Source of the DNA: a virus
Lineage: Duplodnaviria > Caudoviricetes
Length of the DNA: 64,000 nucleotides
IMG/VR virus record: IMGVR_UViG_3300050821_009094
Location: 1,544-65,543 of that record
Strand: one strand, 5' to 3'
Of this stretch, positions 3,288 through 42,405 are shown one piece after another. Numbering within the stretch: position 1 is the first letter of the stretch; each line of letters starts with the position of its first letter. Position numbers and translations under genes: made by a program. Under the pieces are notes generated by a model that saw nothing but the letters and a program-made list of their open reading frames with translations, had not been told where the DNA came from and ran no database searches.

Positions 3288-3527
3288 TCACTGGTTTCCT
3301 TGGTTGACTGGTTTAAAGGACACTATGCCACCCCACCAAAAATGACAGCACAAAAAGCCGGTAAGGAAGCCAGCAATCCATGGGAATGGAGGGAAATCGG
3401 CTGTAACAGTCCAGACGAAACGCGAGAGTGTCGAAGTATTCTCGTGCAGCGACCAGCCCTCCATGATTGAGAAACTGACCACAATCAGGAGCAACCAGAC
3501 TGCCCATTTGATACTGCCTTTCATCAT
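3288..3527 (-). CDS. small 2-TM membrane protein (second holin or antiholin candidate)
   Basis: 79 aa, two TM stretches, overlaps the endolysin stop. Confidence 0.6.
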   Translation of the reverse strand: MMKGSIKWAVWLLLIVVSFSIMEGWSLHENTSTLSRFVWTVTADFPPFPWIAGFLTGFLCCHFWWGGIVSFKPVNQGNQ

Positions 3528-4102
3528 GTCACTACCCCCGTTGAAGCCATTTTAAGCGCCTGCGTCCCGATCTCCTTCGACCGGCGAATCCAGTCAGTAC
3601 CGAAATACTTGAACGTTGTCAGTGAGCGGTAGTACGCCTCGCGCGCTGCGGTGAAAGCGTTGATCATGCCGGTTACGTTAGAGATGGCAGCAACTGCAGC
3701 ATCCGTCTGCGATCCCCACATACCATCGGCCGCAATGTTGAGGGAGCGCTGCAACAGGATCGTGGACCTGCGTGGCCCGGCGTTCACGTTCTCATCGAAC
3801 ACGCATAGATTAAAGCCAGCCGGCAGCTTGTCGCAATTGGGCTGCCAGTACGAATCTAGGTAGATCGTCTCGCCTTGTATCTGCGTGATCTTGCGCACAT
3901 CGACGATCGGCAAGCCTTGGGCTTTCAGCCACAGATCGTACTCGTTGCCGGTGATCCCGCATTGCGTCTCACCGCCGGGATCGTGCGGGTCATCGTCGAA
4001 ATTGCGCGGGTTGGACCAGTCGGCGGCCGTGCCAGTGTAGACGTTGCATTCCTGTTGCAACGTGAACGGCAGGCAGGCGAGGAAATTTTTAAGGTCAGCC
4101 AT
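3524..4102 (-). CDS. endolysin, glycoside hydrolase family 108 with C-terminal PG-binding region
   Basis: DDPHDPGGETQCGIT, FDENVNAGP, LQRSLNIAADGMWGSQT and FGTDWIRR motifs typical of GH108. Confidence 0.9.
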   Translation of the reverse strand: MADLKNFLACLPFTLQQECNVYTGTAADWSNPRNFDDDPHDPGGETQCGITGNEYDLWLKAQGLPIVDVRKITQIQGETIYLDSYWQPNCDKLPAGFNLCVFDENVNAGPRRSTILLQRSLNIAADGMWGSQTDAAVAAISNVTGMINAFTAAREAYYRSLTTFKYFGTDWIRRSKEIGTQALKMASTGVVT

Positions 4103-4418: not shown

Positions 4419-5813
4419 CTAGCAGTGCGTGACGATGCCGTTGACGCTGGCGAAACTTGAAGTTGGCGACCCAGTGCAAGACAGACCAGTATGGGCGCCC
4501 ACAATAAAAGCCTGTCCTGTGACTACTCCCGTGGGACTAACCACAAATCCAGGCGTAAAGATCGCTGCGGTCGTGAATGTAGCGCTGCCCCATTGTAGCC
4601 CATAGCTGTGGGTTCCAGACGGGGCAAGCCACATATTCGTTGCGCTGCTGTTCGATTGAATATCGGCAGTGTTGATACTGGCAGCATAAAAAGCGAGGCC
4701 AACATCCCAGTATGCAACGAAATCTGCTGAACGTATTTCGACGCCGACGCCACCGTTATTGTGCCCTGTACCGCCATAGTAGGCCAGGTCAAGCCCGACA
4801 AAAAGATTTGGGGTGCCAACTGGATTAAACAGCGCCGGTGCCCCAGTTAAGTTCTGTATATCGCCACTGAGAAAAACAGCACCGTTGCCAACAGTCGTCG
4901 CTTCCGTCACCCCAAACATATCATAGCCGATATGACCTTGGTTGACATCGCCTGACTGTACCGACGCGGCGTAAAAAGCCACGTTGTCGTTCGTGGATCC
5001 CGTGCCGCTTGTGTTGGTGGTGACGAAAACTTTCAGCCCGTTTAATTGCTGGGTGTTGTTGGTGGTAGCGTCAATTCGCATCACTGAACCAAGCGAACCA
5101 TCGCCCGAACTCGTTCCATTGACGATGCTCTCGGTTCTGCTGATCTGTACGGTTGGCGTGTTGCCCGCAATAATCGGGTGCGCAGAACTGCCCGACTCGA
5201 TCAGCAATTCGTTTGGTGTATTGGCGGAAGGCAGCAGCGTGCTGTTCGGTCCAAGAATGGAGAATAGATCGGGGCTGACGACATTCGTACCCGAAAAGGT
5301 GTTGTTGCCCGTAAGCGTATTATTACCATCGAGAAGTACGAGATCACTTCCCAACACGCCCGAGTCGCTCAACAATGACCCAGATGTGTTGTTGAACAAG
5401 GCGACATCTCCTACTGTCGATGAAACCGGTCCAACAATTCCGCCAACGGTGTAGGGAAAATTATAAGTCGTGCCGTTGAGCACGATCGAGAACGGCTGTG
5501 GCGTGTCGGTGCCGAAATTCTGGATGACCAAGCTCACGCCGGTTGCGTCGCTGATGTTCCAACAGACCTGCTGATAGCCCGGCGCTGTCGGCGGTGCGGT
5601 ACTCTGGCAGATCGTCTGGCCTTGTCCGACCACGCCAAGGCTGGTCAGGAAGCCGTTAGCAGCGGTACCGGCGTCCTGGATGATGCCATTGGTCGTCCAG
5701 GATGCTGCGTGGCCCGGCGTGACGTTACCCGATTGTTTGACCGCATTACCGGTTTGACCAAGCGCCGGCAGGCACGTCGCCAGCAACAGAAAGACACTAA
5801 GGAAGCGGCTCAT
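4419..5813 (-). CDS. signal-peptide fibre/adhesin-like protein
   Basis: MSRFLSVFLLLATCLPALG-Q; G/S/T/N-rich; fibre-shaft-like GPVSSTVGDVALFNNTSG..DSG and NNTLTGNNTFSG; ends NGIVTHC. Confidence 0.75.
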   Translation of the reverse strand: MSRFLSVFLLLATCLPALGQTGNAVKQSGNVTPGHAASWTTNGIIQDAGTAANGFLTSLGVVGQGQTICQSTAPPTAPGYQQVCWNISDATGVSLVIQNFGTDTPQPFSIVLNGTTYNFPYTVGGIVGPVSSTVGDVALFNNTSGSLLSDSGVLGSDLVLLDGNNTLTGNNTFSGTNVVSPDLFSILGPNSTLLPSANTPNELLIESGSSAHPIIAGNTPTVQISRTESIVNGTSSGDGSLGSVMRIDATTNNTQQLNGLKVFVTTNTSGTGSTNDNVAFYAASVQSGDVNQGHIGYDMFGVTEATTVGNGAVFLSGDIQNLTGAPALFNPVGTPNLFVGLDLAYYGGTGHNNGGVGVEIRSADFVAYWDVGLAFYAASINTADIQSNSSATNMWLAPSGTHSYGLQWGSATFTTAAIFTPGFVVSPTGVVTGQAFIVGAHTGLSCTGSPTSSFASVNGIVTHC

Positions 5814-6288
5814 AGAACACCGTGATGTTGGCTGTTGCGGCTGCGCCCTGGGCGTTTTGCAGTTGGAAGTAGATCACGGTGTCCGAGAACACCATTGTAT
5901 CCTGACTGTTGATTGTCAGCGACTGAGCGTTATTGTTGGTATCGGCGTTCGGCGTCGTGATGGTGATGGCCGATCCGGCAGTGACGATCGCAACACCGCC
6001 TTGTTGGATACCGGTGAACACGCCGCACGTCGCCATGGTCAGTGCCGACGAAGACCCTGAGATAACGATTCGATCGCAGCGCCAGCGGGTGAACCCGACT
6101 GGCAGATTGATCAGGATCGGGTTGTCGAAGTTGGTTTGATTAAAGTTGACGTTGGTGATTGACTGCGAGAGCAACCCCTGGGTATTAAGCAGGATCGCGG
6201 TCCCGCCGTCGCCAACCACTTCATTGGTCGTCCAGACCGCCAGATGCCCTGGAGTAACCCTGCCTGACTGGAGAACCCGGTTGCTCAT
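5797..6288 (-). CDS. fibre-block protein without signal peptide, paralog of 12194..12745
   Basis: shares QSGxVxPGHLAxW, RWRC, ATCGVFTG, NAQSLTIN and VFYEPLP with 12194..12745. Confidence 0.8.
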   Translation of the reverse strand: MSNRVLQSGRVTPGHLAVWTTNEVVGDGGTAILLNTQGLLSQSITNVNFNQTNFDNPILINLPVGFTRWRCDRIVISGSSSALTMATCGVFTGIQQGGVAIVTAGSAITITTPNADTNNNAQSLTINSQDTMVFSDTVIYFQLQNAQGAAATANITVFYEPLP

Positions 6289-6301
6289 GGTTCGAGCTAT
6301 A

Positions 6302-7666
6302 TCACATATGGAACAAGCAGTGATAGACGAGTTTTGTGCCGCTGATTGAACCGCTGGTCACCGACCATCCCGTGTATGGGCTGGAACCAATGGGCGTAAC
6401 CGCAAGTCCTCCCGTGACGATGCAATCCGGCAATTGCAACCACGTTTGAGATTGGAACGTTACCGTACAGCCCGTAGCACCAGACCCCACGGTAATCGTA
6501 CCGCTGGTGTCGGTATCATTGGTATCGATGCTTGCTCCCGATCCGCATGAACTAACAGCAGGTGGTGACGCGCTCGGTGACTGGTTATAGGGGTAATGGG
6601 TAGCCAAACCCGACGCGGTGAAGTAGCCCTGAAAATTGGTGCCTTGATACACTAAACTCGACGCGACGGAACAGCCGGAAACGATTTGCTGTTTCATCAC
6701 GCCATTGTTGGCGCCCGCCAGGTTGGTGCTGCCGACCAGCCAATAGCACGGGCCGCCGACGCTACCAGTTATGGTATCGTACGACCCGAATGTGTTTATC
6801 CCGGTGCTGTCACCCCTGATAACGCCGGTCTGCCCGCCGCCGAGTATTGTACCCGATCCGATGAAATTGATCGTCGCGCCGTCATCCAGCCACTGCCCGC
6901 CGTTGAATATGTCAACGACTGATTGTGTAAGTCCGGTCCCAACCGTGATATTGGCGACGCCGGTAACAAAAACCTCGCCGCCGCCTTCAAGGTTGAAAAT
7001 ATCACGGCCGGATGACGGCCCAAAATTATTGGTGCCACTGAACTGGACCTTGGTGCCAGTCCACGCGCTCACGATATTGCAAACATAGGTCGCTTCACTG
7101 GTTGCGTTGGCGCTTATGCCGTGGAGATTATAATTGCCGGAGTAGAACAATAAGACTGCGCCATCGCCGCCCCAATCGCCCTTGTTGCAGGTCCCGTTCG
7201 GCGGCGAGATGACGACACTGGACGGCGATGCGTCGTTGCCGAAAATCTCTATCTGGCTGTAGCCATAATTGGCGTTGCAAGTGAAGCATTTCGGAAAGCC
7301 AATAGGCGATCCAAATTGTGGTGTCTCGGGATAGGTGCCATTGCCCGTGTATATTACGGCGCTGCCGACATTGAAACTCCAGAGCAGCGTCTGGTTCATA
7401 ATATAGAGAGCATTCTGGAGTGTCTTGCATGGCGCGGCGATCGTCAGACACGTATTTGAGTCGCTTCCTGCCTGACAGGTCGATCCACCGTTGACACCAC
7501 ACGGCGTCGTGCCACTGCCGGATGGGTTGACGTAAAGAGCGACATTGCCGGTAACCAGCGAGATCAGACTGGCGATGGCAGCACCCCGGATCCAGCCCGG
7601 CGCCACTTGCGGGACCAGAACAAGCGCAACCGCTGATGCAATTAGAAACGTTCGCAGTGCCTTCAT
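6302..7666 (-). CDS. signal-peptide beta-helix-like receptor-binding/depolymerase-like protein
   Basis: MKALRTFLIASAVALVLV leader; YVNPSG..GSDSNTCLT.AAPCKTLQNA..GNGTYPE motif typical of pectin-lyase-fold N-termini; 14 Cys. Confidence 0.7.
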   Translation of the reverse strand: MKALRTFLIASAVALVLVPQVAPGWIRGAAIASLISLVTGNVALYVNPSGSGTTPCGVNGGSTCQAGSDSNTCLTIAAPCKTLQNALYIMNQTLLWSFNVGSAVIYTGNGTYPETPQFGSPIGFPKCFTCNANYGYSQIEIFGNDASPSSVVISPPNGTCNKGDWGGDGAVLLFYSGNYNLHGISANATSEATYVCNIVSAWTGTKVQFSGTNNFGPSSGRDIFNLEGGGEVFVTGVANITVGTGLTQSVVDIFNGGQWLDDGATINFIGSGTILGGGQTGVIRGDSTGINTFGSYDTITGSVGGPCYWLVGSTNLAGANNGVMKQQIVSGCSVASSLVYQGTNFQGYFTASGLATHYPYNQSPSASPPAVSSCGSGASIDTNDTDTSGTITVGSGATGCTVTFQSQTWLQLPDCIVTGGLAVTPIGSSPYTGWSVTSGSISGTKLVYHCLFHM

Positions 7667-10600
7667 GGGATAACCTCGACGATTTGAGCATCGGCTGCAA
7701 GCGATACCGAAACCGATGACGTTGAGTGAGTTGTAGTTGGGGTGGTGCTGACTATGGGATCGTAGACGTTGACGGTCGTCGCCGTGATCGGCAGCGTTAC
7801 CGTAAGCGACGATGTGGAAGGTGTTACTTGGCTATGGGTTGTATCGTTCCATATCGTCGGTTCCTTCCAGATCACGATTTCCCATGTGCCATTTGATTTC
7901 TCCAGCAGCAAGGAATTGCCGCCGCCTGCCCCTGCCGCAGGCAACCCGGAAATCGAATAATTGAACTGGCCAGGCGTAAACGTTAGAGCCGTACCGCCGG
8001 TGTCATTGAGTATCGTGTAGGTGTTTTTTACCGCGGTGCCATTCACCTTAATGGTCGCCTGATCGCTCTGATAAAAACCGTAGTTATCGATGCAAGCACC
8101 ATCGCCGGTGTTGAAGTCAAAAAGTGTATAAAGCGTCGTGTAGGGAACGCCTGCGGTAAACATATCGAAATAGATATTCATCTCCAATCGCGCCTGCGTG
8201 GTCTGATCGACCGCGCCAGTCTGCGCCGAAGGCGTGCAATAGCCGCCCTCGGTTATGACAGTAGGCGCGCCAACAATCGGCTGGTTGGCCGGATTGAGCG
8301 CCGCCACCATCGTTGAGCCGACATAGGTCGTCGGCTGCGTGCCGCTGAATGGATAAAAATGGATGTTGTTGTAATTTGCCGTGCCGGCAATGCTCGGCGG
8401 CTGCGGCACCGTGTTGCCGAAGTAGCTGGTGTAATTTGCTACCTGGACGCCGGCCCCGGTCAGGGTCGCATCGGCTTGCGTGACGTTATAAATCAACGCC
8501 TGCCATAACAGACTGGAGGCCACCGATGCTTCGAGTTGCGCCAGCGGCGCGGCAGATGGGCCTGTGACGCCCTGTGCCGAGAACTGGATAAGATCGCCAC
8601 TTTTTACACCACCATTGATGGCGTTGGCGCTCATCGTCAGCGTGGTGCTGGTGGCTGATACGACCGTGGTGCCCGGCGCTATCGCCGGCAAAACGGCGGC
8701 AGCATTGAGCACAACGGCATCCGCTATGGCGCCGTTAGCATTGCCGGCGCCGGTCCCGATCGTGACCGACAATCCCGACTGGGTGGATGTGAATGTCTGG
8801 TATTCGTTAAGCGTGTAAAAGCCGTTGCCGAGCTGTGTATAACCCGAGCCGGCTGTTGGTGCCGCGGTCGAGGCCATGCGGAAACCGCCGAGAACAACCG
8901 TGTTGTTATGCGAAGTCGAGATGGTAAGAGGATCGGTTGTCCCCGTAATGGGGGAGCCATCGAAAGGCGACGACGTATTGCAATTGACAATTCCAACGAC
9001 ACCAGCCGCGACAAAACCGGGAGGATTGCTAAACGTAATGGTGTCGGTCTGAGGAAATCCACCGCTTGACGGTCCTATGGCATAGAATTCCTGCTCTGGC
9101 TGTCCTGTGCCGGCAGTTGCTCGCAACGCCCAGCTCAAACTCAAAGAATCGTTTACCGCAGAGATAGCGCCGGTATTTGTCGCCGTGAACGCCACCAGAC
9201 ACTCGTTCGGCGAGTTTATTGTAATGGGAACCTGAAAACCCGTACTGCAACTGGCACAAGAAAGATAGTTGCTCCCTGGATCAACGGTTTGAGAAACATC
9301 TGTTACCGTTATGCCGGTGCCGGCATTGACCGTTCCGGTCCCGCTGAGTGTAAAGCTGTAGTTGCCGACCGACTCGACTTCGGCAGGCGTTGCGGCGAAG
9401 TGCAGTACGGCGCTGCTGGTGGACGTGGTGTTGTTGGTGGTGCCAGTGTTGACATAGCAAATCGGGAAATTGTTGGTCTCGTTCGGTCCCTCGTTCGCCA
9501 GCATCTTGCCGGGGTAAGTGGTAACAAACGTATTCATCAAGGCAATGGATGCAGCCGCACCGGTTGACGCATTATCACAGTCAATGGTCGGAAAACTGAC
9601 CGGGCCGTTGATCCAAAGGAAATTAAACCTGACGTTATCGTTTGCTGCGAGATAATTATAATTGCCACCGCCGTCGCCTGGCGTCGGCATGACGGCGCGC
9701 GCTACCGTCATCCCCATATTCGACATCGCGGTTCCGGCTGCGGCGGCAGGTGTGCCAAGAGGATCAACAACGCCGACCGAATTGGTGAAGTTCTTGGCGC
9801 GTTGCGCCTGCGCTCCAATGGTGCAAGGCGAACTCCCAATGCCCCCGACTGCAATCAAATAATTGGCAAAGGCACCGCAGGTGTTTGAAACATCTTGGGC
9901 AGTCATTTGACTGCCCCAGAATGCCATGGCTACTATTGACGTGGAATCCGAGAATGCGCCGCCGGCGCCATAATAATTAAGCAGGTTTGCAGTACCAGTT
10001 CCAACGCTGTTCGAAGTAGAATTCGGCGAACCTATTGCAGTGTTGTTAAAATACAGCGTAGTTGCCGATACTCCGGTACGTACCGCAACGGCATAACCTG
10101 ACTGAGATGCTTCGGTTTCTTGATCGAATCCTAAACTATTGGAAAGTTGAGCAAGCAAAGTACCAGCGCCGGCATTGTTTTCCACCAATGCGTAGACAGC
10201 GGTATTAGCCGAGCCGCCTAGCATTATACCGCCGTTTGTTGGAGCAGTCCCCAACAACCAACCGCCGAGGCTGACACTGTTCTGCGTCAACTGAGTGCCG
10301 GAAGTAAATGAAACTCCGCTGGCTAAATAGCTGGTTGAACCATCCGAATTATAGCCTTCATTGGCTGTGAAAGTCGGCGAGTTGACCGCAGTCAAAGTTG
10401 CCGTGCCGGGATTTTTCCAATTGATCAGGGCCGACTGACTATCGGCTGCCGCCGGAACATAGAGGTAATCCATCTTCCCCCAAACATTCGATGGATTCGC
10501 CAAAAGTGCCGCAACCAGATTGTTGATCGCGGTTTTGTATGCTGTCGTTGGCGGGGTATTAAACGCTGCAAAAATTGCACACGATTGTGCGAGGTACGGA

Positions 10601-10704
10601 CAAACTGTGCCGGGCACAGTATGATTATAACTAGAATCACGACCAGGCGGCAGGCCGGTCCCACAAAGAAGAACAACAAGCAGTACCAGAAACGCGCGCT
10701 TCAT
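7663..10704 (-). CDS. large exported multidomain protein: LamG-like N-terminal domain plus clan GH-A-like glycoside hydrolase with inserted beta domains
   Basis: start MKRAFLVLLVVLLC at 10704 (TGATG overlap); EGPNE, HFYP and ITEGGY motifs fit GH-A acid/base and nucleophile positions. Confidence 0.7.
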   Translation of the reverse strand: MKRAFLVLLVVLLCGTGLPPGRDSSYNHTVPGTVCPYLAQSCAIFAAFNTPPTTAYKTAINNLVAALLANPSNVWGKMDYLYVPAAADSQSALINWKNPGTATLTAVNSPTFTANEGYNSDGSTSYLASGVSFTSGTQLTQNSVSLGGWLLGTAPTNGGIMLGGSANTAVYALVENNAGAGTLLAQLSNSLGFDQETEASQSGYAVAVRTGVSATTLYFNNTAIGSPNSTSNSVGTGTANLLNYYGAGGAFSDSTSIVAMAFWGSQMTAQDVSNTCGAFANYLIAVGGIGSSPCTIGAQAQRAKNFTNSVGVVDPLGTPAAAAGTAMSNMGMTVARAVMPTPGDGGGNYNYLAANDNVRFNFLWINGPVSFPTIDCDNASTGAAASIALMNTFVTTYPGKMLANEGPNETNNFPICYVNTGTTNNTTSTSSAVLHFAATPAEVESVGNYSFTLSGTGTVNAGTGITVTDVSQTVDPGSNYLSCASCSTGFQVPITINSPNECLVAFTATNTGAISAVNDSLSLSWALRATAGTGQPEQEFYAIGPSSGGFPQTDTITFSNPPGFVAAGVVGIVNCNTSSPFDGSPITGTTDPLTISTSHNNTVVLGGFRMASTAAPTAGSGYTQLGNGFYTLNEYQTFTSTQSGLSVTIGTGAGNANGAIADAVVLNAAAVLPAIAPGTTVVSATSTTLTMSANAINGGVKSGDLIQFSAQGVTGPSAAPLAQLEASVASSLLWQALIYNVTQADATLTGAGVQVANYTSYFGNTVPQPPSIAGTANYNNIHFYPFSGTQPTTYVGSTMVAALNPANQPIVGAPTVITEGGYCTPSAQTGAVDQTTQARLEMNIYFDMFTAGVPYTTLYTLFDFNTGDGACIDNYGFYQSDQATIKVNGTAVKNTYTILNDTGGTALTFTPGQFNYSISGLPAAGAGGGNSLLLEKSNGTWEIVIWKEPTIWNDTTHSQVTPSTSSLTVTLPITATTVNVYDPIVSTTPTTTHSTSSVSVSLAADAQIVEVIP

Positions 10705-12197
10705 CAGATCGAGTATCCCCACGCCGTTACTGAAACTACGCCGCCGGTGCTTGCAGCCGACGAAATGACGGCAATCGAGGTTGATACGGCACTCGCCGGA
10801 ATGCAGGGGCTAAATACTTCCTCGGTAACACCTAACCCGGAAGCATTCGGCGCGGTCCACTGCGTGAAATTAAGTGTTCCTGTCACAGTGCCCGTCACCG
10901 TCGCATTGCCGGTCACAGCCGCGGTTGCGTTGGCGCGGATAGAGAAGCCACAAATATACGTCAAATGCCCGGATACGTTGGTCAGCGTCGCCGTCGTCGC
11001 CGCAGTCGTGCCGGTAGTAGAGGCCGTGATGGGCACGGCAGTTGCCGGATATGGGCTGATCGAGTCGACCGCACCGATGTTTACCGTATGCGATACTTGT
11101 GCCGGGATCGGTTGCCCGGTATTGGTCGCAATCGCCGCAAGTGAAGAATTGCCGGTCGTCTGCAGCGCTGCAGTCGCCGCCGATCCAAGCGTGGTGTTGA
11201 TCGTGCCGAGCGAGGTGTTGATAGTGGTCAGCGTCGAGTTGCCGGTGGTCTGCAGCGATGAAGTTGAGGCACCGGTTGGCAACGGAAATGCCGACGCGAT
11301 ACTGACCGGTTGCGTGGTGGCAGAGGCATCGACCAGCAGCGCATTTCCGACCGTGACATTGGCCGAATTGCTGCCCTGATGGATCGTCATCAACCAGGGC
11401 GACGTGTTTGGGGTATTGCCCGGCTGTACCGTCCAGGTGCCCGACTCAGTCGCCGGGAAGGTACCGCCCGTGCCGGTCGTTAAGATCGCCGTGCCATTGG
11501 CCCCGGTGTTGGCCAGACTGACCTGCGCAGGAGAAGCCGCAGTACCGATCTCAGCACCAGCCGCGGTGCGCAAATTGACCATGCCAGCGCGATAGGCTGT
11601 CATCTGCCATGCACCGGTCTGGCCCGTCGTCAAGGGATTGGAGGTCGCCGTGGTCTGGAACACGCCGCCGGCAGGGGTCAGCGCCGTGGTGCCGAACGTG
11701 AACGCGGACTCGTCCACAACCGCCGTACCGCCCGAGCCGGCGCAGCCGGTCACGCAGTTGACGATCAGGCGCCCCGAGGCGTCGAGCTGCAACCCCTCGA
11801 ACTGACCAGTCGAAGGACTGGGCAGTGACGAGTTGTACACGCCGCCAATGAACAGTCCCTTGGCCGGGGCGGTAGCACCTGGCGCGACTTGTACGGCAAT
11901 CTGATTAGCTGCTGTTCCCGCTCCAGTCGGTAACGGCCACGACACAGCACTGACAGGCTGGGTCGTGGTGCCTGTCGGGTCAGTACGCAGGGGGGCGCCA
12001 GCAGTGGCGACTTCGGTGCCGGACGAGTTTTCCAGCACCATGGCGGTGTAATATGGCCCGGAGCCGAAGATCTGGATCAAGAAGGTATTGAGGGCCGCGT
12101 CCTTGTAGGTGTAGGTCGTGGATGCCGCTAGCGCCACCTCCACCGTTACGGCCAGAAACAGAGCGGCGCCGGCCGCGATCTTCTGCAAGCGGGTCAT
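10704..12197 (-). CDS. signal-peptide Thr/Ala-rich fibre-like protein
   Basis: likely start MTRLQKIAAGAALFLAVTVEVALA-A overlaps the upstream stop; repeats TQPVS..PLPTGA and ALQTTGNSSL. Confidence 0.75.
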   Translation of the reverse strand: MTRLQKIAAGAALFLAVTVEVALAASTTYTYKDAALNTFLIQIFGSGPYYTAMVLENSSGTEVATAGAPLRTDPTGTTTQPVSAVSWPLPTGAGTAANQIAVQVAPGATAPAKGLFIGGVYNSSLPSPSTGQFEGLQLDASGRLIVNCVTGCAGSGGTAVVDESAFTFGTTALTPAGGVFQTTATSNPLTTGQTGAWQMTAYRAGMVNLRTAAGAEIGTAASPAQVSLANTGANGTAILTTGTGGTFPATESGTWTVQPGNTPNTSPWLMTIHQGSNSANVTVGNALLVDASATTQPVSIASAFPLPTGASTSSLQTTGNSTLTTINTSLGTINTTLGSAATAALQTTGNSSLAAIATNTGQPIPAQVSHTVNIGAVDSISPYPATAVPITASTTGTTAATTATLTNVSGHLTYICGFSIRANATAAVTGNATVTGTVTGTLNFTQWTAPNASGLGVTEEVFSPCIPASAVSTSIAVISSAASTGGVVSVTAWGYSI

Positions 12198-12745
12198 GGC
12201 ATACCTAGTGGTTGTGAGTCGGGAGTGCCTGTGGGTGGCGGGGGTACGATGGTGGCGGACAAGGGTAGTGGCTCGTAGAACACGTTGACGTCGGCATAGG
12301 CCGCGTTGCCTTGCGGGGTTTGCAGACGGAAGTAGATGGCCGTATCCGACAATGCTTCGGTATTCTGGTTGTTGATCGTGAGCGACTGGGCGTTGTCGTC
12401 GGTATCGATCATGTTCGTCGTGATGGTAATCGCCGTGCTGCCGGACACGATCGCGGTGCCGGTCCCGCCGACACCTGTGAACACACCGCACGTTGCCGTG
12501 CTGAGATTGCCGGATGGGTTGGAAAGCACGATGCGGGAGCAACGCCAACGGCCATAGGTTGCCGGCAGCTTGATGAGAATGAGGTTATCGACGTTGGCCT
12601 GGTTGAAGTTGACTGCCTTGATGGTGGACAGAAATTTGGCGTAGGTGTTAACAATTGTAACCCCGGCATCATCAATCACGCCATCGGTCAACCAGGCCGC
12701 CAAATGACCTGGCACGACGCTGCCACTTTGCAGAATTTGGTTCAT
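12194..12745 (-). CDS. fibre-block protein without signal peptide, paralog of 5797..6288
   Basis: MNQILQSGSVVPGHLAAWLTDG...VFYEPLP. Confidence 0.8.
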   Translation of the reverse strand: MNQILQSGSVVPGHLAAWLTDGVIDDAGVTIVNTYAKFLSTIKAVNFNQANVDNLILIKLPATYGRWRCSRIVLSNPSGNLSTATCGVFTGVGGTGTAIVSGSTAITITTNMIDTDDNAQSLTINNQNTEALSDTAIYFRLQTPQGNAAYADVNVFYEPLPLSATIVPPPPTGTPDSQPLGMP

Positions 12746-12978
12746 TTATCAGCCGGTTTAGGCGCTTCTTCAGATTTTACCTGCGCCGCTGCCTTCACGC
12801 GCGTCTGCCAGTTGACGCACCACGTCGCGATATAGGCGGTTACCGCAATATCGACGGTCGGCGATTTGGCCGCCAGCGCACACATCGAGGCAATATTGTT
12901 CTGATCCTCGTCGGTGACGGGAAAAGGAGCGGCGAAGGCCGTTGATGTTAGAACTAAAAGCGCGACGATTGTTTTCAT
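12742..12978 (-). CDS. small secreted protein with two Cys
   Basis: MKTIVALLVLTSTAFA-APF. Confidence 0.7.
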   Translation of the reverse strand: MKTIVALLVLTSTAFAAPFPVTDEDQNNIASMCALAAKSPTVDIAVTAYIATWCVNWQTRVKAAAQVKSEEAPKPADK

Positions 12979-14543
12979 AATGCTGAAAATCCCGATGGTG
13001 GGCTATAGAACGGCGAGGCACCCGAATAAGTGAAAGAACCTCCAGCGTAATTTAGCCCCAAAGCCGCATAGATTGTGTAACTGCCGCTCCATGTCAGCCA
13101 CGGGTTGGCACCAGTCGCTGGATTGCCGCTCGCGCCCCACACATTGTTGATGCCGAGCCACGCTTTTTTCGCGTCCGCATCAAACGCAATCATGATCCGG
13201 TCGCCGAGTCCCGGCGTTATCGTCACCGCATTTGCAATGGTGAAGCCCGTAATATTCGGTGTGCCGCCTGATGCTACGCTGTTGGCATAGGTGCCAAGAT
13301 CGAAACTGAGTGGCATGTATTGCAACTGCGTATCATCACAAATGCCATAGCTGTATGCCGCCCCCGTTCCAGCAACCAAAAATTCGAAATACCATTTGCC
13401 GGTTGACTTGCCGATCAGGGAACGAGCCACGTTCTCTATTGCGCCGGTCGGATTCGATGTAGCCGTAAGGTTGCTGTTCGACAGCGTAAATATGGGCGTA
13501 GCAGTGAGATTATCGAGCGTGTCCGGCAACGTGGTGAGCGTTGCCGTCATCGCCTTGAATATGTAAGGCCCTTGTCCTAGCGTGCCTGTTGGGGCAATGC
13601 GGACATCGTAGGCAGTGGCCGCCGAAAGTCCCGTCAGCAGAACAGAGGGATTGCGCGACGCGGTATGAGAGAACGATGTCCAGCTTCCAGAGCCGTGAAC
13701 GGCGTATTGAATTGAATAATCCGAATAATATCCGCCGGAACTGGGAAACGACCACGACAACGCAATCGAAATGTTTTTGGTTGCTCCTTGCTGGATATTG
13801 AAAACAGAACCGGGGGTTACCGCACCAGCAATCAGGCTGTTAATGGTCGCCGCGTACATGCACTCCATGTATGTCTGACCAAGATTGGTCGGGTGAGTGC
13901 CGTCGCTGAATAGGTTTGTGAACAGCGATATTCCGGGGATGCCTACCGACGCGCTGCTGCCGTAGTCAATCAAGGCATCGCAGTGCGTCGGGACCAATGC
14001 AGAAATGGCGGCATTGAGCGTTGCCCGCCATGTCTCATGGGCTTGATCGCTATCGAAATCGGTTAAAGTCGAAACTACAGCATAGGTAAAACCCCCAGAT
14101 TTAACGCTGTCACACACCCCACCGATGGCTGTGGCAAGACCTGCAGCATTGTTTGGATAGTAGGTTGCGTTGCTTGAGTCATTGACCCCAATCAGAATCG
14201 TATAGATGTATTTGCTAAAACCTGGGTTTGAACTGATAAGAGCAATGTCGGATGACTCGCGCGAGACAGGTCCAGCAACCCCATCGCCGGAGTGGCCATT
14301 ATTCTGCAAAGTAACCAGCGACGTATTCGGAGCATACAAATTAGGATAGCTGGTGACTCCCGTGGCACCGTGATTTTGAGTGATGCTGTCGCCTTCGGCT
14401 ACAATGAAGGTGCTGCTGGCGGTCGGAGCGACGTGGCACGGACATGTGCCGCAGTTGTCAATGAAGAAAACTTGCGAGGATGATTTACTATAGAATAGCG
14501 CCGCACAAGCAACAGCAAGCGCGGCTATCACAAACTTTCGCAT
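12975..14543 (-). CDS. exported SGNH/GDSL esterase plus FN3 plus SPRY-like domain protein
   Basis: signal peptide; GDSIT, GVND and DGTHP SGNH blocks; LSW..Y.IQY..LTGLSAATAYDVRI (FN3); GKWYFEF (SPRY-like). Confidence 0.85.
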   Translation of the reverse strand: MRKFVIAALAVACAALFYSKSSSQVFFIDNCGTCPCHVAPTASSTFIVAEGDSITQNHGATGVTSYPNLYAPNTSLVTLQNNGHSGDGVAGPVSRESSDIALISSNPGFSKYIYTILIGVNDSSNATYYPNNAAGLATAIGGVCDSVKSGGFTYAVVSTLTDFDSDQAHETWRATLNAAISALVPTHCDALIDYGSSASVGIPGISLFTNLFSDGTHPTNLGQTYMECMYAATINSLIAGAVTPGSVFNIQQGATKNISIALSWSFPSSGGYYSDYSIQYAVHGSGSWTSFSHTASRNPSVLLTGLSAATAYDVRIAPTGTLGQGPYIFKAMTATLTTLPDTLDNLTATPIFTLSNSNLTATSNPTGAIENVARSLIGKSTGKWYFEFLVAGTGAAYSYGICDDTQLQYMPLSFDLGTYANSVASGGTPNITGFTIANAVTITPGLGDRIMIAFDADAKKAWLGINNVWGASGNPATGANPWLTWSGSYTIYAALGLNYAGGSFTYSGASPFYSPPSGFSAL

Positions 14544-14546
14544 GGC

Positions 14547-16262
14547 CTACCGGACCTTGCGTTTGAGTTGCTCGATTTCGGCTTGTTGCTCTTGCAGCGC
14601 CTTTACTAGAACCGGCACGACGCCTAGATAGTCAAAGGTGTTGGGTTGGCCTTGGTCGTCAAGACCGGCGAGTTTCGGAAGCACCTTGATGCCCTGCTCG
14701 GCTGTGAACCCATAAAGCAATTTGTCCGGATCACCATGATCGGAATTTAGCTTGTACTTTACCGGCTCCAATTTCATGATCTCGGCCAGCCCAACGTCTA
14801 AATCACCAATATCATGCTTGTACCGCGTGCTCGACGTGCCGAGGCAAATTCCCAGAGTGCCCGATCCAGAATAGAACGCATGGCTCGTAGTATCTTCACA
14901 TACCGTCGCGTCGGTATGCGTTGCGTCGCTGCTAATCTGCGGAAGTTCAAATAAACCGGCGGAAGTAATCACAGCCAAATTGCTACCGTTGTTGACAAGA
15001 AATGTGAACCCGCCAGACGCACCTGGTGCGTTGAAGTAAACCGTGTTGTTCATCCCTGCTGTCTGTATCAAAGCGGTCGAAGTCGTGAAGGTACTTTCTC
15101 CAAGCCAGAGCGCGTAATAGCTATTCGCAATGACGTTCGGCGACGACACCGCGAAAACTGGCGTATAGCCACCACCAGCAAGTTGTGACGACATCACCAA
15201 ATTGCTGCCGACGCGCGTCACCACACCTTGAACCGGCTGATTCTCGATGATCCAATCCACTTCGTTCGTAGCCGCTGTGGCGGTCGTGTTCCAAGCCTGC
15301 CCGCTAAGACGCAACCGGGGCGACCATTGCTGCGCACCGGAAGCAGCCGCGGTTGTGTTGGTCAGCACATAACCGTCAGTCGAGGTCGCACCGATGCTTT
15401 GTGTATTGATCTCATGGCTGGCAGTATAAGTGATGCCACTTGTTGCCTGTATTACTGATCCATCCGTATAAAGCAGGTTACCCGCGCTGCCGCCGCTGAC
15501 GGTGGTTGAATTGATCGTAAGGCCGCCACCGCTCTGCGCCACGCAGGCGGGCAAACCGCCAGAAGCGCCGAGGACATTCGTTCCGGTGCAAACCGCAAGC
15601 CGCGTCAGTACGCCGGATGAATTCCGATAGTAGAGGTCGCCAGTGGCATCAGACCCCAGCGTCATGGTGACGCCGCCGATCACGTCCGAGGTATTGTTCA
15701 ACGTAACCGATGTCGGCGTTCCGAGAATGGGCGTGACCAGCGTCGGCGACGTGGCATAGACCAGATTGCCGCTGCCGGTCGTGCCGAACGTTCCTGCGCC
15801 AACGGTCTGATAATTGGTGCCGTCCGATACCACGCGGTAGCACTGGCCCTTAATGATCGGCAGCGTCGCCGCGCCATTGATGGTCGAAGTCGCGGGGGTT
15901 AGCGTCTGCGTGCCGGCGCCGATATTGCAGATGTCAGCGTACCAGTTCGCAGCGAAGTTACCGCCAGTGCCAGCTTGAGCAATCGTTGGAATTTGGGCCG
16001 ACCCATTGGATAGATCGACTAGCTTGCCGCAATCGGTATTGTTGATCGGGTAATTGGCGCCGGTCTGCAGATTCACCACTTCAGCCGTTGAAATCGTTCC
16101 GGTCGTCGTGATTGGACTCGGGCTTACTACACCAGCGCAGCCTGCGGATATGCTGGTGACGGTGCCGGAACCGCCACCAGAACTTCCTCCCGGCAACACA
16201 ATCTGGGCATTTGCAGGTGTGATAAAACAAAGCGCAAAGCAAACTGCAAGAATCTTGCGCAT
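14547..16262 (-). CDS. tail fibre with C-terminal intramolecular chaperone (peptidase S74-like) and N-terminal signal peptide
   Basis: MRKILAVCFALCFITPANA-Q; ATSPTLVTPILGTP fibre motif; SSTRYKHDI..L.PVKY..GFTAEQ..DY..VPVLVKALQEQQAEIEQLK. Confidence 0.85.
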   Translation of the reverse strand: MRKILAVCFALCFITPANAQIVLPGGSSGGGSGTVTSISAGCAGVVSPSPITTTGTISTAEVVNLQTGANYPINNTDCGKLVDLSNGSAQIPTIAQAGTGGNFAANWYADICNIGAGTQTLTPATSTINGAATLPIIKGQCYRVVSDGTNYQTVGAGTFGTTGSGNLVYATSPTLVTPILGTPTSVTLNNTSDVIGGVTMTLGSDATGDLYYRNSSGVLTRLAVCTGTNVLGASGGLPACVAQSGGGLTINSTTVSGGSAGNLLYTDGSVIQATSGITYTASHEINTQSIGATSTDGYVLTNTTAAASGAQQWSPRLRLSGQAWNTTATAATNEVDWIIENQPVQGVVTRVGSNLVMSSQLAGGGYTPVFAVSSPNVIANSYYALWLGESTFTTSTALIQTAGMNNTVYFNAPGASGGFTFLVNNGSNLAVITSAGLFELPQISSDATHTDATVCEDTTSHAFYSGSGTLGICLGTSSTRYKHDIGDLDVGLAEIMKLEPVKYKLNSDHGDPDKLLYGFTAEQGIKVLPKLAGLDDQGQPNTFDYLGVVPVLVKALQEQQAEIEQLKRKVR

Positions 16263-16768
16263 TATTCATAATCCGCTGAGATGTACCCCGTGTCAGTCCC
16301 GGTCGTATAAGTGAACGGCGTGGTTGCCGAAGTCATCAAAATGACAATTCCAGTACCATACGCGACGGTGCCATTGATGTGTGCCAACGAGCAGCCGCGC
16401 GCTGTCGTATCGAAATAGCAAACATCAAGAACTGCCGCGCCCGTCAAAGCCCCCGTGCTTGGCGCCGATGCTGCATTATAAGCAATACAGTAACCTGCAG
16501 CACCACCTGTGATCGCCGTGCAATTAAACCCTGCCAGATCACCTGCCGCAGCTTTGACGACAAGAGATGTACCTAAACTTGTCGTAACCGCATGACTTAA
16601 AACCACTGCTGAAGCAGCGGCGGAAGTCGGAAATAAGTTCGTGGTATTGCACGGGACGTAGCGATTTGCACCCGCTGTTCCAGTATCGCAGTAAACGACA
16701 ACGGGAGTTTGTGCATCGACTAAGGTTGGTGTCAGCAGGATGGCGAGAAAGACGAGGATCTTAATCAT
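16262..16768 (-). CDS. signal-peptide small beta protein with 6 Cys
   Basis: MIKILVFLAILLTPTLVDA-Q; overlaps the upstream stop. Confidence 0.75.
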   Translation of the reverse strand: MIKILVFLAILLTPTLVDAQTPVVVYCDTGTAGANRYVPCNTTNLFPTSAAASAVVLSHAVTTSLGTSLVVKAAAGDLAGFNCTAITGGAAGYCIAYNAASAPSTGALTGAAVLDVCYFDTTARGCSLAHINGTVAYGTGIVILMTSATTPFTYTTGTDTGYISADYE

Positions 16769-17040
16769 CTCATTCTCACCAGCCAGCACGCGGTCAGAAC
16801 GAACAGCGCGTAGATCGTCAGCGAGACGATCTGGAACACGTCGGGTTTTGGCGTGAGGTACCAGAGCCAGAACGCGGAGCCTACGGCGGGCACCGCGAAC
16901 AGCGCCGGCATGGCCGCAAGCGCACGCTTCGACAGGGCGCCAAGCCCCATCATTAGCATGGTCATGCCGGCGTCAGTGCCGGACTTGGTTTCGGATTCTT
17001 CAGTTTCGGGAACGACTTCGAGTTTGAACGGCTCTGCCAT
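16765..17040 (-). CDS. 2-TM membrane protein
   Basis: two hydrophobic helices in the C-terminal half. Confidence 0.7.
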   Translation of the reverse strand: MAEPFKLEVVPETEESETKSGTDAGMTMLMMGLGALSKRALAAMPALFAVPAVGSAFWLWYLTPKPDVFQIVSLTIYALFVLTACWLVRMR

Positions 17041-17254
17041 TCCCTGTCTCCTGATCGTTGATCTGCTGGCGCATATCGTCCATCGTCGGCTCGTTCGACT
17101 CCTGGACGTCCTGGCCAGCGGCTTTCTTCAGCGCGGTATAATAGAGTCCCAAAACCTTCAATGCGTCTATACGCTTTTCAAGCGGAGTATCTTTATCCAA
17201 CGCATCGCAGGCAGTCTTTTGCGCCAGTTTCTCGATGTCGGAAAGGGTGGTCAT
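17000..17254 (-). CDS. hypothetical protein
   Basis: coupled ORF within the operon. Confidence 0.65.
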   Translation of the reverse strand: MTTLSDIEKLAQKTACDALDKDTPLEKRIDALKVLGLYYTALKKAAGQDVQESNEPTMDDMRQQINDQETGNGRAVQTRSRSRN

Positions 17255-17463
17255 TGTTTACCGGTCATAGGGATAGCGTGCCGCTTAAGCTGATCTATTG
17301 CTGTCGCAAGCAACGCAGGCCCATCAGGGTCTGGATATAGCACCATGCAAAGGGCTGTTACAAGAATCGCAAATCTTTCGCTGGGCGCTGTATCAGCAAG
17401 TGATTCGACTATTTCTTGTGCTGTTTTAGCGCAATTTTCTGATCGCGTTATAAAATTGGTCAT
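17251..17463 (-). CDS. hypothetical protein
   Basis: coupled ORF within the operon. Confidence 0.55.
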   Translation of the reverse strand: MTNFITRSENCAKTAQEIVESLADTAPSERFAILVTALCMVLYPDPDGPALLATAIDQLKRHAIPMTGKQ

Positions 17464-26655: not shown

Positions 26656-27114
26656 TTACACCCGCGCAAACCGCAGTTCGCGAGTGAACACCCGGCCGAT
26701 GTGTTCCTTGATGATCTCGTGCGGCACGTCGCTTAATTCTTCGACCCACACCTTCTCGATACCTTGTGGCTTGGCCCACCGCGCCACTTCCTCGTAGAAC
26801 GCGCCGCCTTCCTTCTGGAAGCCTTCCTGACAGAACACGAAGCGCTCGATGATCTCGGGTTTCGGCGCCAGCGAGTATATGTTCGTGAGCTGAAACAGCG
26901 CGACACTGTGATCTTGGTAGAGAAACAGATTGGCGTTGTCGTACAGCAAGGTGCGGATCCAGCCGAGGATGAAGCGGTCGTTAAGATGCGTGTAAGCCGC
27001 CTTCAGGCGGGTCAAAAGGAAACCGCCGTGCGTGTCGATGTCGGGAAGCGCGAAGCGGCGCAGCGTGGAGATCGGGGTGATTTCAGTTGTTTCAGCGAGG
27101 GCAGCTTGAGCCAT
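26656..27114 (-). CDS. hypothetical protein, possible GNAT-like fold
   Basis: 152 aa between adaptor and nozzle, where podoviruses often carry GNAT-like genes; FYEEVARWAKPQGIEKV. Confidence 0.55.
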   Translation of the reverse strand: MAQAALAETTEITPISTLRRFALPDIDTHGGFLLTRLKAAYTHLNDRFILGWIRTLLYDNANLFLYQDHSVALFQLTNIYSLAPKPEIIERFVFCQEGFQKEGGAFYEEVARWAKPQGIEKVWVEELSDVPHEIIKEHIGRVFTRELRFARV

Positions 27115-28037
27115 TAGTATCTCCCGTATGGATTGGTTGCACGACCGGCCCGCGCGTAGTTCGAGTAACCAAGCGCACGACGGTTGAACTGGTCTTCGTA
27201 ATATTTCGCAGCATTGAGATTTTGCAGTTCCTCAAACGCCATCTTAGTAGCAAAGTATGGCACTGCGTCGGTCCAAGGGGCAGGAATTGCTTCAACGCTC
27301 TGATCATCTATGAGGTCAGAAGGAATACAACAGCAGTCAAGTTCAACTTGGTATGATTGACTTGGATATGGATAAAAAAACAAACTGCCTGCTGCACCCT
27401 GACCGAATTGAGAAAAAAACGTAGGAACGTATGAATATTGGTAAGGAAAACTTCGGATTGTCGATTGATATACTGAGAAAGCGTAGCACGGAAGCGAATA
27501 CCGATAATTTGCATAAATGATCGAAGCCGAACGCACAAAATAAATTTCTTTCACGCCGGGAAACGTACTCAAATCGAAATCAGAGAAGTTATATACTTCG
27601 CGAGCCTCCGTTACTTGAGAGATCGGCGTCATGATCGGTGTTGCCGTTGCGCCAGTGCCAGTCGAATCCGTGATCGTCATGATCGGCTGGAAATAGCCAT
27701 AACCACCAAACGCACTGAAGATCGAGACAATCTTACCGCCCGACACAACGCAGGTAGCCGTCGCCTGCGCACCGCCAGGACTCGGCAATTGCCCACTAGG
27801 AAAATCGGGAGGTGTGATCGTTAAGGTCGGCGTCAACGAATAACCCGAACCACCATTCGTCACATTCCAACCAATGATCGACCCAGAAACAGGTGGCACA
27901 GCGCGAATACACTGCGTCCGCATCGCCACTTCACGACGTGCCTGGTTGATGTAGTCAGTGAGGTTACCGACATCGAGGTACTGCTGCTTCTGATCGCGAG
28001 CAAAGCGCTGACATTGAGCGATGTAATTATTGAGCAT
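27114..28037 (-). CDS. head-tail adaptor paralog 2, with GSGY insertion
   Basis: MLNNYIAQCQRF..YINQARREVA..LFFYPYP..AVPYFA. Confidence 0.7.
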   Translation of the reverse strand: MLNNYIAQCQRFARDQKQQYLDVGNLTDYINQARREVAMRTQCIRAVPPVSGSIIGWNVTNGGSGYSLTPTLTITPPDFPSGQLPSPGGAQATATCVVSGGKIVSIFSAFGGYGYFQPIMTITDSTGTGATATPIMTPISQVTEAREVYNFSDFDLSTFPGVKEIYFVRSASIIYANYRYSLPCYAFSVYQSTIRSFPYQYSYVPTFFSQFGQGAAGSLFFYPYPSQSYQVELDCCCIPSDLIDDQSVEAIPAPWTDAVPYFATKMAFEELQNLNAAKYYEDQFNRRALGYSNYARAGRATNPYGRY

Positions 28038-28809
28038 TGCCACTGGCCTGTTGCACTGGACCACCGAAGCGATTGGCTCTGGTTGGATCCTGCGATTGCG
28101 GGAATGCGAAATTGTTCAGGTCAGGATTGGCGAAGTCACGCGCTCGCGCTACGAACTGCTCGTAAAGTGCATAATACTGCTGCGCCTGCTGGACCCGCGT
28201 CGAGGTTTGTGCCGATAGCAGTGCAAGATAAGCAGCAAAGTAAGGCACTGAATCGGACCACAAGTATGGCACAGCCTCGATGTCAGTATCGAGCACCAGT
28301 GCTTGCGGGTAGCACACGCAGTCGCAATTCAACACATAGGCATAATCCGGCAGCGGATCGAGGTAGAAACTGCCACTGAGAATCGTTCCAGCTCCTTCAT
28401 TGGTAATCGCGCCAATACCCGCCGATCCAGCACCATATTGCGCCCACTCGGTCGGCGGGCCACTGGTTGGAACCGGATTGTTAAAGCGCTGGAAGTCGAA
28501 CCATGGCCAGCTCTTGCCCTTGATCCATTTTTGCCCCTGGCCGACGTTGTATTGGATGCGCTGCACGTTGATCGCACCTGCAATGCCGGTCGCAGATGGC
28601 GTGCCGAAGCTGATGCCCGAGAAATTGTAGTTGCGCTGGCCGACTACGGTCGAAATTGTGCCGATCGAGCGAACACAACGGCCCTCGCCAGCCACCTGAC
28701 CGCGCGCTGTGTTGATGTAGCTGGTAATATCCGCGGGAGAATACAGCGAAACTGGAGCGCCGGGATTCTGAAGCAACCGTTGCGTCTGAGTGATGTAGTA
28801 GTTCAACAC
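28027..28809 (-). CDS. head-tail adaptor paralog 1
   Basis: MLNYYITQTQRL..YINTARGQVA..FYLDPLPD..SVPYFA. Confidence 0.7.
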   Translation of the reverse strand: MLNYYITQTQRLLQNPGAPVSLYSPADITSYINTARGQVAGEGRCVRSIGTISTVVGQRNYNFSGISFGTPSATGIAGAINVQRIQYNVGQGQKWIKGKSWPWFDFQRFNNPVPTSGPPTEWAQYGAGSAGIGAITNEGAGTILSGSFYLDPLPDYAYVLNCDCVCYPQALVLDTDIEAVPYLWSDSVPYFAAYLALLSAQTSTRVQQAQQYYALYEQFVARARDFANPDLNNFAFPQSQDPTRANRFGGPVQQASGNAQ

Positions 28810-36481: not shown

Positions 36482-36728
36482 CCTGCAAACTCAAATATTC
36501 CTGCTGCATTTCCATTTGTGTTACTGCAAGCTTGCCAATGGCATCAATATAGCCAAACGACCCAACCCACTTGTTAAGCCAATGCTTATCAGGATCTGTA
36601 AATACCATGACAAGTCCGGTTAACCGCCCGGCTTCTGCTTCTACCAACGCATTGCGTAGCAATTCCACAACCTTATCCTGATCGGTCGGTTCTGCTTTAC
36701 GCTTATCTGCCAAAGAGACAACGGTCAT
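36474..36728 (-). CDS. hypothetical protein
   Basis: MTVVSLADKRK start overlaps the terminase stop. Confidence 0.65.
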   Translation of the reverse strand: MTVVSLADKRKAEPTDQDKVVELLRNALVEAEAGRLTGLVMVFTDPDKHWLNKWVGSFGYIDAIGKLAVTQMEMQQEYLSLQDG

Positions 36729-39100: not shown

Positions 39101-39480
39101 CACAGTTTCCCCATGTTGTCTCGCATGATGCCGTCAATAATGGGCAAAAGAATATCGTCTCGATCCTCGATCGATTCGTCGGCAAAGGCAAGCATGGGGA
39201 TCTTCAAGATCGCCGGCTTCTTCGGATCGTAGAACACGTTGTCCGGCGGTACTTTCCACAACAGGATGCGGCGACGATCCCTGTCATGATCACCCAGTGA
39301 GAAGAACTCGCCAGCACACTCGTCAGTGAAGCGCGTGCCAAATCGCCGGTCGATCTCCATTTGCCGAATTGGCTCGCGGATATGGGCGGTGCGATCCGGG
39401 TGATCATGAAACCACTGGCCATCTTCATCGAGTTTGCGCAAGGTGACAGTCACGCGTAACTCAACACCGCTCGCGGCCAC
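39100..39480 (-). CDS. hypothetical protein
   Basis: coupled ORF; exact start uncertain. Confidence 0.65.
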   Translation of the reverse strand: MAASGVELRVTVTLRKLDEDGQWFHDHPDRTAHIREPIRQMEIDRRFGTRFTDECAGEFFSLGDHDRDRRRILLWKVPPDNVFYDPKKPAILKIPMLAFADESIEDRDDILLPIIDGIMRDNMGKL

Positions 39481-40262: not shown

Positions 40263-40263
40263 G

Positions 40264-40682: not shown

Positions 40683-40683
40683 T

Positions 40684-42223: not shown

Positions 42224-42236
42224 TATTAAACCTCAG

Positions 42237-42404: not shown

Positions 42405-42405
42405 T

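Follow-up and report, generated by a model that had tools for sequence, protein, structure and literature searches.

A predicted Sec leader and a C-terminal Peptidase_S74 domain combined in a tail-fibre-module protein of an uncultivated podovirus-like phage

Classical phage fibres that are chaperoned by a Peptidase_S74 domain assemble in the cytoplasm, and we know of no signal peptide on the S74 fibres of K1F, T5 or GA-1. Here we analyse a gene at positions 14547 to 16262 (minus strand) of a 64,000-nucleotide stretch of phage DNA, hereafter the window, which comprises bases 1544-65543 of IMG/VR record IMGVR_UViG_3300050821_009094; the record is 65,543 bp long, has direct terminal repeats and is rated 100% complete. 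The gene product, referred to as the target, shares a C-terminal S74 fold and a place in a tail-fibre module with the K1F endosialidase, T5 pb1, the GA-1 appendage and the S-B28 fibre, and trimerisation followed by self-cleavage is expected of it as of the classical fibres. It also begins with a predicted leader. Export combined with S74 processing appears probable. We tentatively favour the view that the target is the precursor of a trimeric receptor-binding fibre that matures outside the cytoplasm and joins virions after membrane breakdown, a chain that is slightly more apt to fail at some link than to hold throughout.

A Sec signal peptide on a phage protein is familiar from pIII of the filamentous phages, which forms disulfides in the periplasm and is incorporated into the particle at the envelope, through which inoviruses are extruded as they assemble. 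The target would resemble pIII as a receptor-binding phage protein with a Sec leader. It differs in belonging to a tailed, lytic phage that packages its DNA into heads, and the two proteins are not homologous. In a full-text literature search, no tail fibre of a tailed phage was reported to carry a Sec leader. PMC9144972 and PMC12923769, in both of which “signal peptide” and “Peptidase_S74” occur, were set aside, as the terms concern unrelated proteins there. In a further study, the lack of signal peptides counts as support for a phage origin of variable proteins (PMC6199706).

The closest described design is that of the mosaic adhesive trimer (MAT) fibres of Bdellovibrio bacteriovorus, for example Bd3182. 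These carry a signal peptide, and 13 of 21 have an S74 domain (PMC10769870). Their self-cleavage was shown experimentally and is blocked by the substitution S782A, and the fibres act outside the cytoplasm; the genes lie on the chromosome of a predatory bacterium, and the product is found on the surface or in the invasion vesicle. The same paper states that the MAT N-domain has no structural homologue in the PDB, and quote an SDxxxK motif for S74 domains (PMC10769870). Compared by outline rather than by sequence, MATs and the target are alike in having a signal peptide, a beta-rich domain (~100-130 residues) right behind it, a long trimeric fibre and a C-terminal S74 domain whose Ser is followed five residues on by Lys. 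The target differs in its matches to gp10-like folds (Z 10-12.7) and in being encoded in a phage fibre module; where a MAT is a cellular gene with a surface product, the target gene lies in a complete phage record. By analogy, MATs show that a leader-plus-S74 design can work outside the cytoplasm. Because the combination is already described for them, the new element here is its occurrence in tailed-phage fibre modules.

The terminal sequences that an initial sequence-only reading had quoted for this gene are both present in an intact open reading frame (ORF) of 571 residues, which starts with MRKILAVCFALCFITPANA-QIVLPGG and ends with ...GTSSTRYKHDI...VKALQEQQAEIEQLKRKVR. The ATG overlaps the TAA of the upstream gene by one base (TAATG), and the start is therefore well defined and no longest-ORF artefact. 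A monomer model was built with AlphaFold2 on 96 sequences, and structures were compared by VIA-align; conservation was read from alignments of 38 homologues (A1) and of the closest 12 (A2). The parts of the gene are as follows, with model confidence given as the predicted local distance difference test (pLDDT).

14547..16262, minus strand: whole gene, 571-residue precursor, ATG start, stop codon at 14547-14549
16206..16262, minus strand: signal peptide of Sec and signal peptidase I (SPase-I) type, residues 1-19 (MRK / ILAVCFALCFI / TPANA), called by our own leader rule, predicted cut between A19 and Q20
16089..16205, minus strand: mature N-terminus, residues 20-58, a Gly-rich linker and a conserved GSGTVTSI segment, with Cys42 (pLDDT 52-76)
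15783..16088, minus strand: T4-gp10-like beta-sandwich, residues 59-160 (pLDDT 91-96, VIA-align)
14940..15782, minus strand: shaft or receptor-binding part, presumed trimeric, residues 161-441 (pLDDT mostly <50, phrog_8443 coverage)
14835..14939, minus strand: pre-cleavage segment, residues 442-476, ..DATHTDATVCEDTT..GSGTLGICLGT, with Cys455 and Cys473 (conservation)
14550..14834, minus strand: Peptidase_S74 intramolecular chaperone/autoprotease domain, residues 477-571 (Pfam, fold), Ser477 being profile position 1, predicted cut between T476 and S477

The leader was called by a sequence rule of our own rather than by SignalP, and cut sites are approximate. The rule requires a net positive n-region, a core of at least 10 uncharged residues with a mean hydropathy of at least 1.8 and small residues at -3 and -1, in a total length of 15-30. 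The N-terminus of the target, in which TPANA is followed by Q, satisfies it with a core hydropathy of 3.18, and residues 2-13 are helical in the model. A lipoprotein reading was rejected on inspection, as no canonical lipobox precedes C8 or C12, and so was a Tat reading, as there is no twin arginine. When the rule was applied to the first start of the 79 ORFs called in the window, it flagged 7 of the 14 within 1.9-16.8 kb and none of the 65 elsewhere, so the leaders of the target region exceed chance. Three further ORFs (g175, g78 and the ORF starting MTRLQ) are flagged once an evident internal start is used.

The leader is a trait of the family. Homologues were collected by a word-indexed search (E up to 1e-3), and 105 of the best 120 of 543 matches pass a refined rule, with a median leader length of 20 and a positive n-region in 104 of the 105; alanine occupies -3 in 81 and -1 in 93 of these, and glutamine occupies +1 in 56. 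The GSGTVTSI motif stands just past the leader in many homologues. Among the 15 that fail, four (P0048, P0060, P0095, P0099) show a leader on inspection or when a later Met is taken as the start, seven have none, and P0024, P0032, P0066 and P0117 have a conserved N-terminal segment (..F[ED]L.H.WHGI[DN]..) followed by a hydrophobic stretch instead of a cleavable leader. An exhaustive HMMER search with residues 436-571 gave 17,978 clusters (50% identity) at E<=1e-3, 1,026 at E<=1e-10 and 378 at E<=1e-30. Among 118 further listed cluster representatives that were absent from the first homologue set, 98 pass the rule; the 20 failures include three in which a plain leader can be seen by eye and about eleven proteins of less than 300 residues that are probably truncated. 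In most homologues the similarity is confined to the C-terminal 135 residues (60-76% identity) and the upstream parts differ, from which it follows that the leader accompanies the S74 module across otherwise different proteins. These observations support a canonical Sec/SPase-I-type leader as a family-wide trait, as judged from sequence features.

The S74 identity of the C-terminus, proposed in the sequence-only reading, was borne out by both profile and fold. Pfam PF13884 (Peptidase_S74) matches residues 477-531 with profile positions 1-56 of 58 (E 6.8e-9, 36.3 bits against a cut-off of 22), and a six-frame scan of the whole record found this S74 match (41.1 bits) as the single one. Ser477 and Lys482 lie in GTSSTRYK with the lysine five residues on, the same spacing as in the SDxxxK motif of S74 domains. 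S477, S478, R480 and K482 are invariant in A2; over the 38 sequences of A1, K482 is invariant and S477 is at least 90% conserved. The model is confident in this region (pLDDT 92-97 across residues 480-570), and residues 442-571 superpose on MyRF ICA (7dc3) with Z 9.1 and a root-mean-square deviation (rmsd) of 2.5 over 113 aligned residues (Foldseek probability 1.00), on the endosialidase chaperone 3gw6 with Z 7.2, on the T5 fibre chaperone 4uw8 with Z 5.8 and on GA-1 3gud with Z 5.5. Sequence searches of the PDB, with the protein and with a profile of A2, gave chance-level matches only (DNMT1, E 0.7; uL6, E 0.03), so that the link to solved S74 structures comes from the fold search alone. Cleavage between T476 and S477 is predicted to free a chaperone fragment of 95 residues. 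Processing at both ends of the precursor, as the initial reading had proposed, would follow if leader and S74 domain both work.

Residues 59-160 form a second virion-type element. They match an Acinetobacter phage tailspike domain (24qj; Z 12.7, rmsd 1.7, 91 aligned), residues 80-180 of CBA120 TSP4-N (7rej; Z 11.7), the T4 baseplate chain 5iv5_AC (602 residues; Z 10.0), which we take to be T4 gp10, and T4 gp9 (1qex; Z 9.3). The matches align 89-95 residues, and the similarity thus covers the whole domain; for TSP4-N, gp10 and gp9 (Z 9.3-11.7) the identity is just 10-15%. We are aware of no leader on CBA120 TSP4, T4 gp10 or gp9. By BLASTP, ~55 of the 119 listed homologues align with this domain, some with tandem or internal copies, and only ~9-15 align with residues 161-441. 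We also note P0012 (907 residues), a leader-less protein with five tandem gp10-like copies aligned by BLASTP and one Cys, in contrast to the Cys-rich leader-bearing forms. Since the matches include TSP4-N, the target combines a leader with a virion-type N-terminal domain. The initial reading had placed a signal peptide where a virion-anchoring domain would be expected; the leader stands, its features being present and conserved, but a Gly-rich linker and then the gp10-like domain come after it, and there is no simple replacement of one by the other. TSP4-N builds the branched tailspike complex and serves as its anchor on the baseplate (PMC8825819). The fold match suggests that residues 59-160 may have a docking role.

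A further line of evidence comes from cysteine parity. Exported proteins with disulfide bonds tend toward even numbers of Cys. In the mature parts of 102 homologues that pass the strict rule, the number is even in 93, odd in 9 and zero in none, and in 98 new cluster representatives it is even in 95, odd in 3 and zero in none. The window and 30 loci, a set that leaves out four duplicate loci and the window's own locus, allow a comparison within the same DNA. There, 21 leader-bearing ORFs with the S74 motif are even in 20 cases, odd in one and zero in none; 68 leader-bearing ORFs without the motif are even in 54, odd in 7 and zero in 7 (p 4e-10), and 417 leader-less ORFs are even in 131, odd in 193 and zero in 93. 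The target has 8 Cys past the leader. C455 is invariant in both A1 and A2; C473 is so in A2, with conservation of at least 90% in A1. In the rows of alignment A3, both are present in 73, one only in 8 and neither in 3. As a guess from their order along the chain and from co-occurrence, the eight might pair as Cys42-78, 112-141, 225-240 and 455-473. The S74 fibre of the cultivated Synechococcus phage S-B28, used as a control, differs from the target in having no leader and no Cys. The confinement of the even-Cys bias to leader-bearing ORFs lends indirect support, as an independent sign, to folding outside the cytoplasm.

The target does not stand alone. In the direction of transcription, the gene order runs from internal-virion-protein-like genes (429, 530 and 977 residues, nearly Cys-free) through three small ORFs to ten fibre-module genes and the endolysin, which places the leader block between the internal-virion-protein-like genes and the lysis genes. 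Eight of the ten consecutive fibre-module genes at 4419-16789 (minus strand), the target and seven others, bear leaders, with even Cys numbers except in g522. Head, internal-protein and replication genes have no leader. As in phages with multiple receptor-binding proteins (RBPs), many fibre genes stand in one block. Position in the structural/tail module and similarity to phrog_8443 (“tail fiber protein”; target residues 203-569, E 1.5e-7) and to phrog_33119 are those expected of a tail-fibre gene. The other members of the block are these.

16262..16768, minus strand: g175, 168 residues from the ATG at MIKILVF; leader, 6 Cys, translationally coupled to the target
12975..14543, minus strand: g522; leader, GDSL/SGNH esterase (PF13472, 38.9 bits, cut-off 32.9), fn3 and a C-terminal domain
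12742..12978, minus strand: g78, small protein; leader, 2 Cys
12194..12745, minus strand: g183, 183 residues; no leader, QSGxVxPGH from residue 6
10704..12197, minus strand: ~497-residue protein starting MTRLQKIAAG; leader, 4 Cys in the mature part
7663..10704, minus strand: ~1013-residue protein starting MKRAFLV; leader, 12 Cys past it, phrog_26223
6302..7666, minus strand: g454; leader, 14 Cys
5797..6288, minus strand: g163, 163 residues; no leader; paralogue of g183, whose N-terminal motif it shares
4419..5813, minus strand: g464; leader, then a QSGNVTPGH motif, 4 Cys in the mature part

The last of these genes bears on the removal of the leaders. In g464 the QSGNVTPGH motif starts seven residues past the predicted cut, and in all 25 listed proteins with the g464 N-module (the query's own entry included) the leader ends one to eight residues before the motif. 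Because QSGxVxPGH thus becomes the mature N-terminus either through a leader cut (the 25 listed) or from the initiator Met (g163 and g183), the leaders appear to be removed. Beyond the QSGxVxPGHLAxW start, g183 and g163 share a conserved RWRC...ATCGVF pair and a VFYEPLP ending. From their sequences, the two may serve the exported fibres as adaptors or be their counterparts in the cytoplasm. The mature part of g522 has 7 Cys, the sole odd count in the block, and its C-terminal domain matches phrog_10080; it is a candidate for an exported, tailspike-like deacetylase. The three small ORFs between the 977-residue internal protein and the fibre block (16765-17463, minus strand) encode 91, 84 and 70 residues; the first has two hydrophobic stretches and is 53% identical to its counterpart in a related contig, L029.

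Alignment A1 retrieved 27 viral loci with this S74 module, where a single-protein query had given only distant S74 matches. Only L029, a 64,877-bp contig with the same module order, is a relative of this phage, and its homologue of the 977-residue protein is 52% identical; the remaining loci are different backbones with the same module. The S74 ORF is flagged by the strict rule in 22 of the 27. In L015 the leader lies at a later in-frame ATG, in L024 the contig ends within the S74 ORF, and the leader call is ambiguous for L019, L025 and L033. The densest block seen, in L012 (5062-14826, plus strand), has eight consecutive leader-bearing ORFs of 128-775 residues between the large terminase and the portal. 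L016 has four between the adaptor (phrog_12985/637) and the nozzle (phrog_578), L011 has two between the major head protein and the adaptor, and L023 and L026 have four each after the internal proteins.

We infer export, both cleavage sites, the disulfides and virion attachment, and the course of events envisaged for the target is the following. A precursor expressed late would be exported by Sec, with the leader cut between A19 and Q20, and disulfides would be made in the oxidising periplasm. The S74 domain would then drive trimerisation and cut itself between T476 and S477 by means of Ser477 and Lys482. The mature fibre (residues 20-476) may build a branched complex with the seven other leader-bearing proteins through gp10-like domains. 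DNA-filled particles would be assembled in the cytoplasm and would meet the fibres only at lysis, when the holin breaches the inner membrane. It is possible, though we would sooner expect the generalisation to need revision, that widespread uncultivated podoviruses build their virions in two compartments in this manner, with heads and tails made in the cytoplasm and a Sec-exported fibre set added at holin opening.

Several points weigh against the target being a virion fibre. Before lysis, the fibres would be in another compartment than the particles, and no tailed phage with virion parts assembled from the periplasm came up in the literature search. The homologue sets consist of related sequences, and their counts are not independent events. 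S74 homologues that the leader rule leaves unflagged retain the Cys455/Cys473 pair, so this pair by itself is no proof of periplasmic folding. From their sequences, P0024, P0032, P0066 and P0117 look like proteins with an uncleaved signal anchor, that is, an inner-membrane tether, which fits a membrane-tethered product better than a virion-borne one. Finally, MAT, the only leader-plus-S74 family described, is a cell-surface adhesin and not a virion part.

These points lead to the strongest rival, in which the target is exported but stays out of the virion. As a trimer in the periplasm or displayed on the surface, it would act with the other leader-bearing fibre-like proteins on the envelope of the infected cell. 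Possible roles are the masking or destruction of receptors (superinfection exclusion, or keeping progeny from adsorbing to debris), the loosening of surface polysaccharide ahead of release, and MAT-like adhesion. The compartment problem is then solved, the four homologues that look membrane-anchored find a place, the neighbour g522 is a leader-bearing GDSL esterase, and the phage encodes a leader-bearing beta-barrel protein resembling outer-membrane proteins (OMPs), g271. MATs provide a precedent of the same outline with a proven surface location (PMC10769870). We nevertheless regard this explanation as unlikely, although it deserves serious weight, and favour the virion-fibre reading because the genes occupy fibre slots of structural modules on several unrelated podovirus backbones, the N-domain has the virion-type gp10-like fold, the families are mosaic in the way of RBPs, and no leader-less match to a tail-fibre family was recognised in the window, though several structural ORFs there lack annotation. 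Moreover, ~12 kb, near a fifth of the genome, would serve accessory envelope factors.

A second rival, which we consider improbable, holds that the N-terminus does not serve export. The target would then be a cytoplasmic fibre whose hydrophobic segments form a trimeric plug as an anchor, or act as a membrane-inserting peptide at infection. Tail fibres are normally assembled in the cytoplasm, and the support for export is indirect here; the absence of signal peptides has been taken as a mark of phage origin in the study cited above (PMC6199706). An anchor, however, needs neither the positive n-region found in 104 of 105 homologues nor the A-x-A pattern (A at -3 in 81 and at -1 in 93 of 105). 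Nor does a plug account for an even-Cys bias seen only in leader-bearing ORFs, or for a mature N-terminal motif shared by leader-bearing and leader-less proteins, and such hydrophobic leaders would in general engage the host targeting machinery.

An artefact is hardly credible, whether as a wrongly called start, a chimeric contig or a cellular gene within a mis-assembled record. The record is a metagenome assembly with no isolate, but the gene's ATG is coupled to the stop of the preceding gene, the contig carries terminal repeats and the completeness rating given above, and L029 shows the same module order. A prophage or cellular origin is unlikely: a scan with A2 over genomes of 185,579 species confirmed the S74 subfamily motif in a single contig of 9.3 kb, which belongs to a metagenome-assembled genome labelled Fimbriimonas and is possibly a binned phage fragment.

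In the usual view, folding and attachment of tail fibres are cytoplasmic events; in the present case leaders and the disulfide signature mark an entire fibre module, and both extend over the subfamily of 378 clusters (50% identity, E<=1e-30). If the products are virion parts, assembly spans two compartments, infectivity comes to depend on lysis timing and on DsbA and Sec of the host, and tail fibres with Sec leaders mark a route of assembly so far undescribed in tailed phages. Otherwise, lytic phages devote about a fifth of the genome to exported fibre-like envelope effectors. RBP predictors that discard leader-bearing proteins would miss such genes, and periplasmic expression is probably required for leader-bearing fibres to fold.

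The genome as a whole is that of a podovirus-like tailed phage, complete at 65.5 kb. In addition to the genes listed below, the window encodes a family-A DNA polymerase (PolA), a primase-helicase and an SNF2 helicase; no tRNA gene was found.

36725-38641: large terminase
27114-28064, minus strand: SU10-type adaptor (PF24175)
3524-4102: GH108 endolysin
3288-3527: holin-like ORF with two transmembrane segments

There is no cultivated relative in INPHARED, since megablast of the head module against cultivated phages gave no match, the cultivated matches of portal and terminase are all distant (<35% identity), and tblastn of the target gave only the S74-domain match to S-B28 and one short match. 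Searches of cultivated phages with g464 and g183 gave no match either. Beside the lysis genes lies g271 (1935-2750, minus strand; 271 residues), which is leader-bearing and Cys-free and has no Pfam match; its look-alike clusters in the ESM Atlas are outer-membrane beta-barrel proteins, commonest in Pseudomonadota (score 0.95), which points weakly to a host in that phylum.

Two further regions are noted for their own sake. The adaptor ORF at 27114-28064 adjoins and overlaps the ORF at 28027-28809 (both minus strand), and the two have similar N-termini, ..LNNYIAQCQRFARDQ.. and ..LNYYITQTQRLLQNP..; only the former matches the SU10 adaptor family, and a duplication of the adaptor is possible. In the early or middle region, 39450-43416 (minus strand) encodes an FkbM-type methyltransferase, a TPR protein and an NAD-dependent sugar epimerase, for which a role in sugar or DNA modification is possible.

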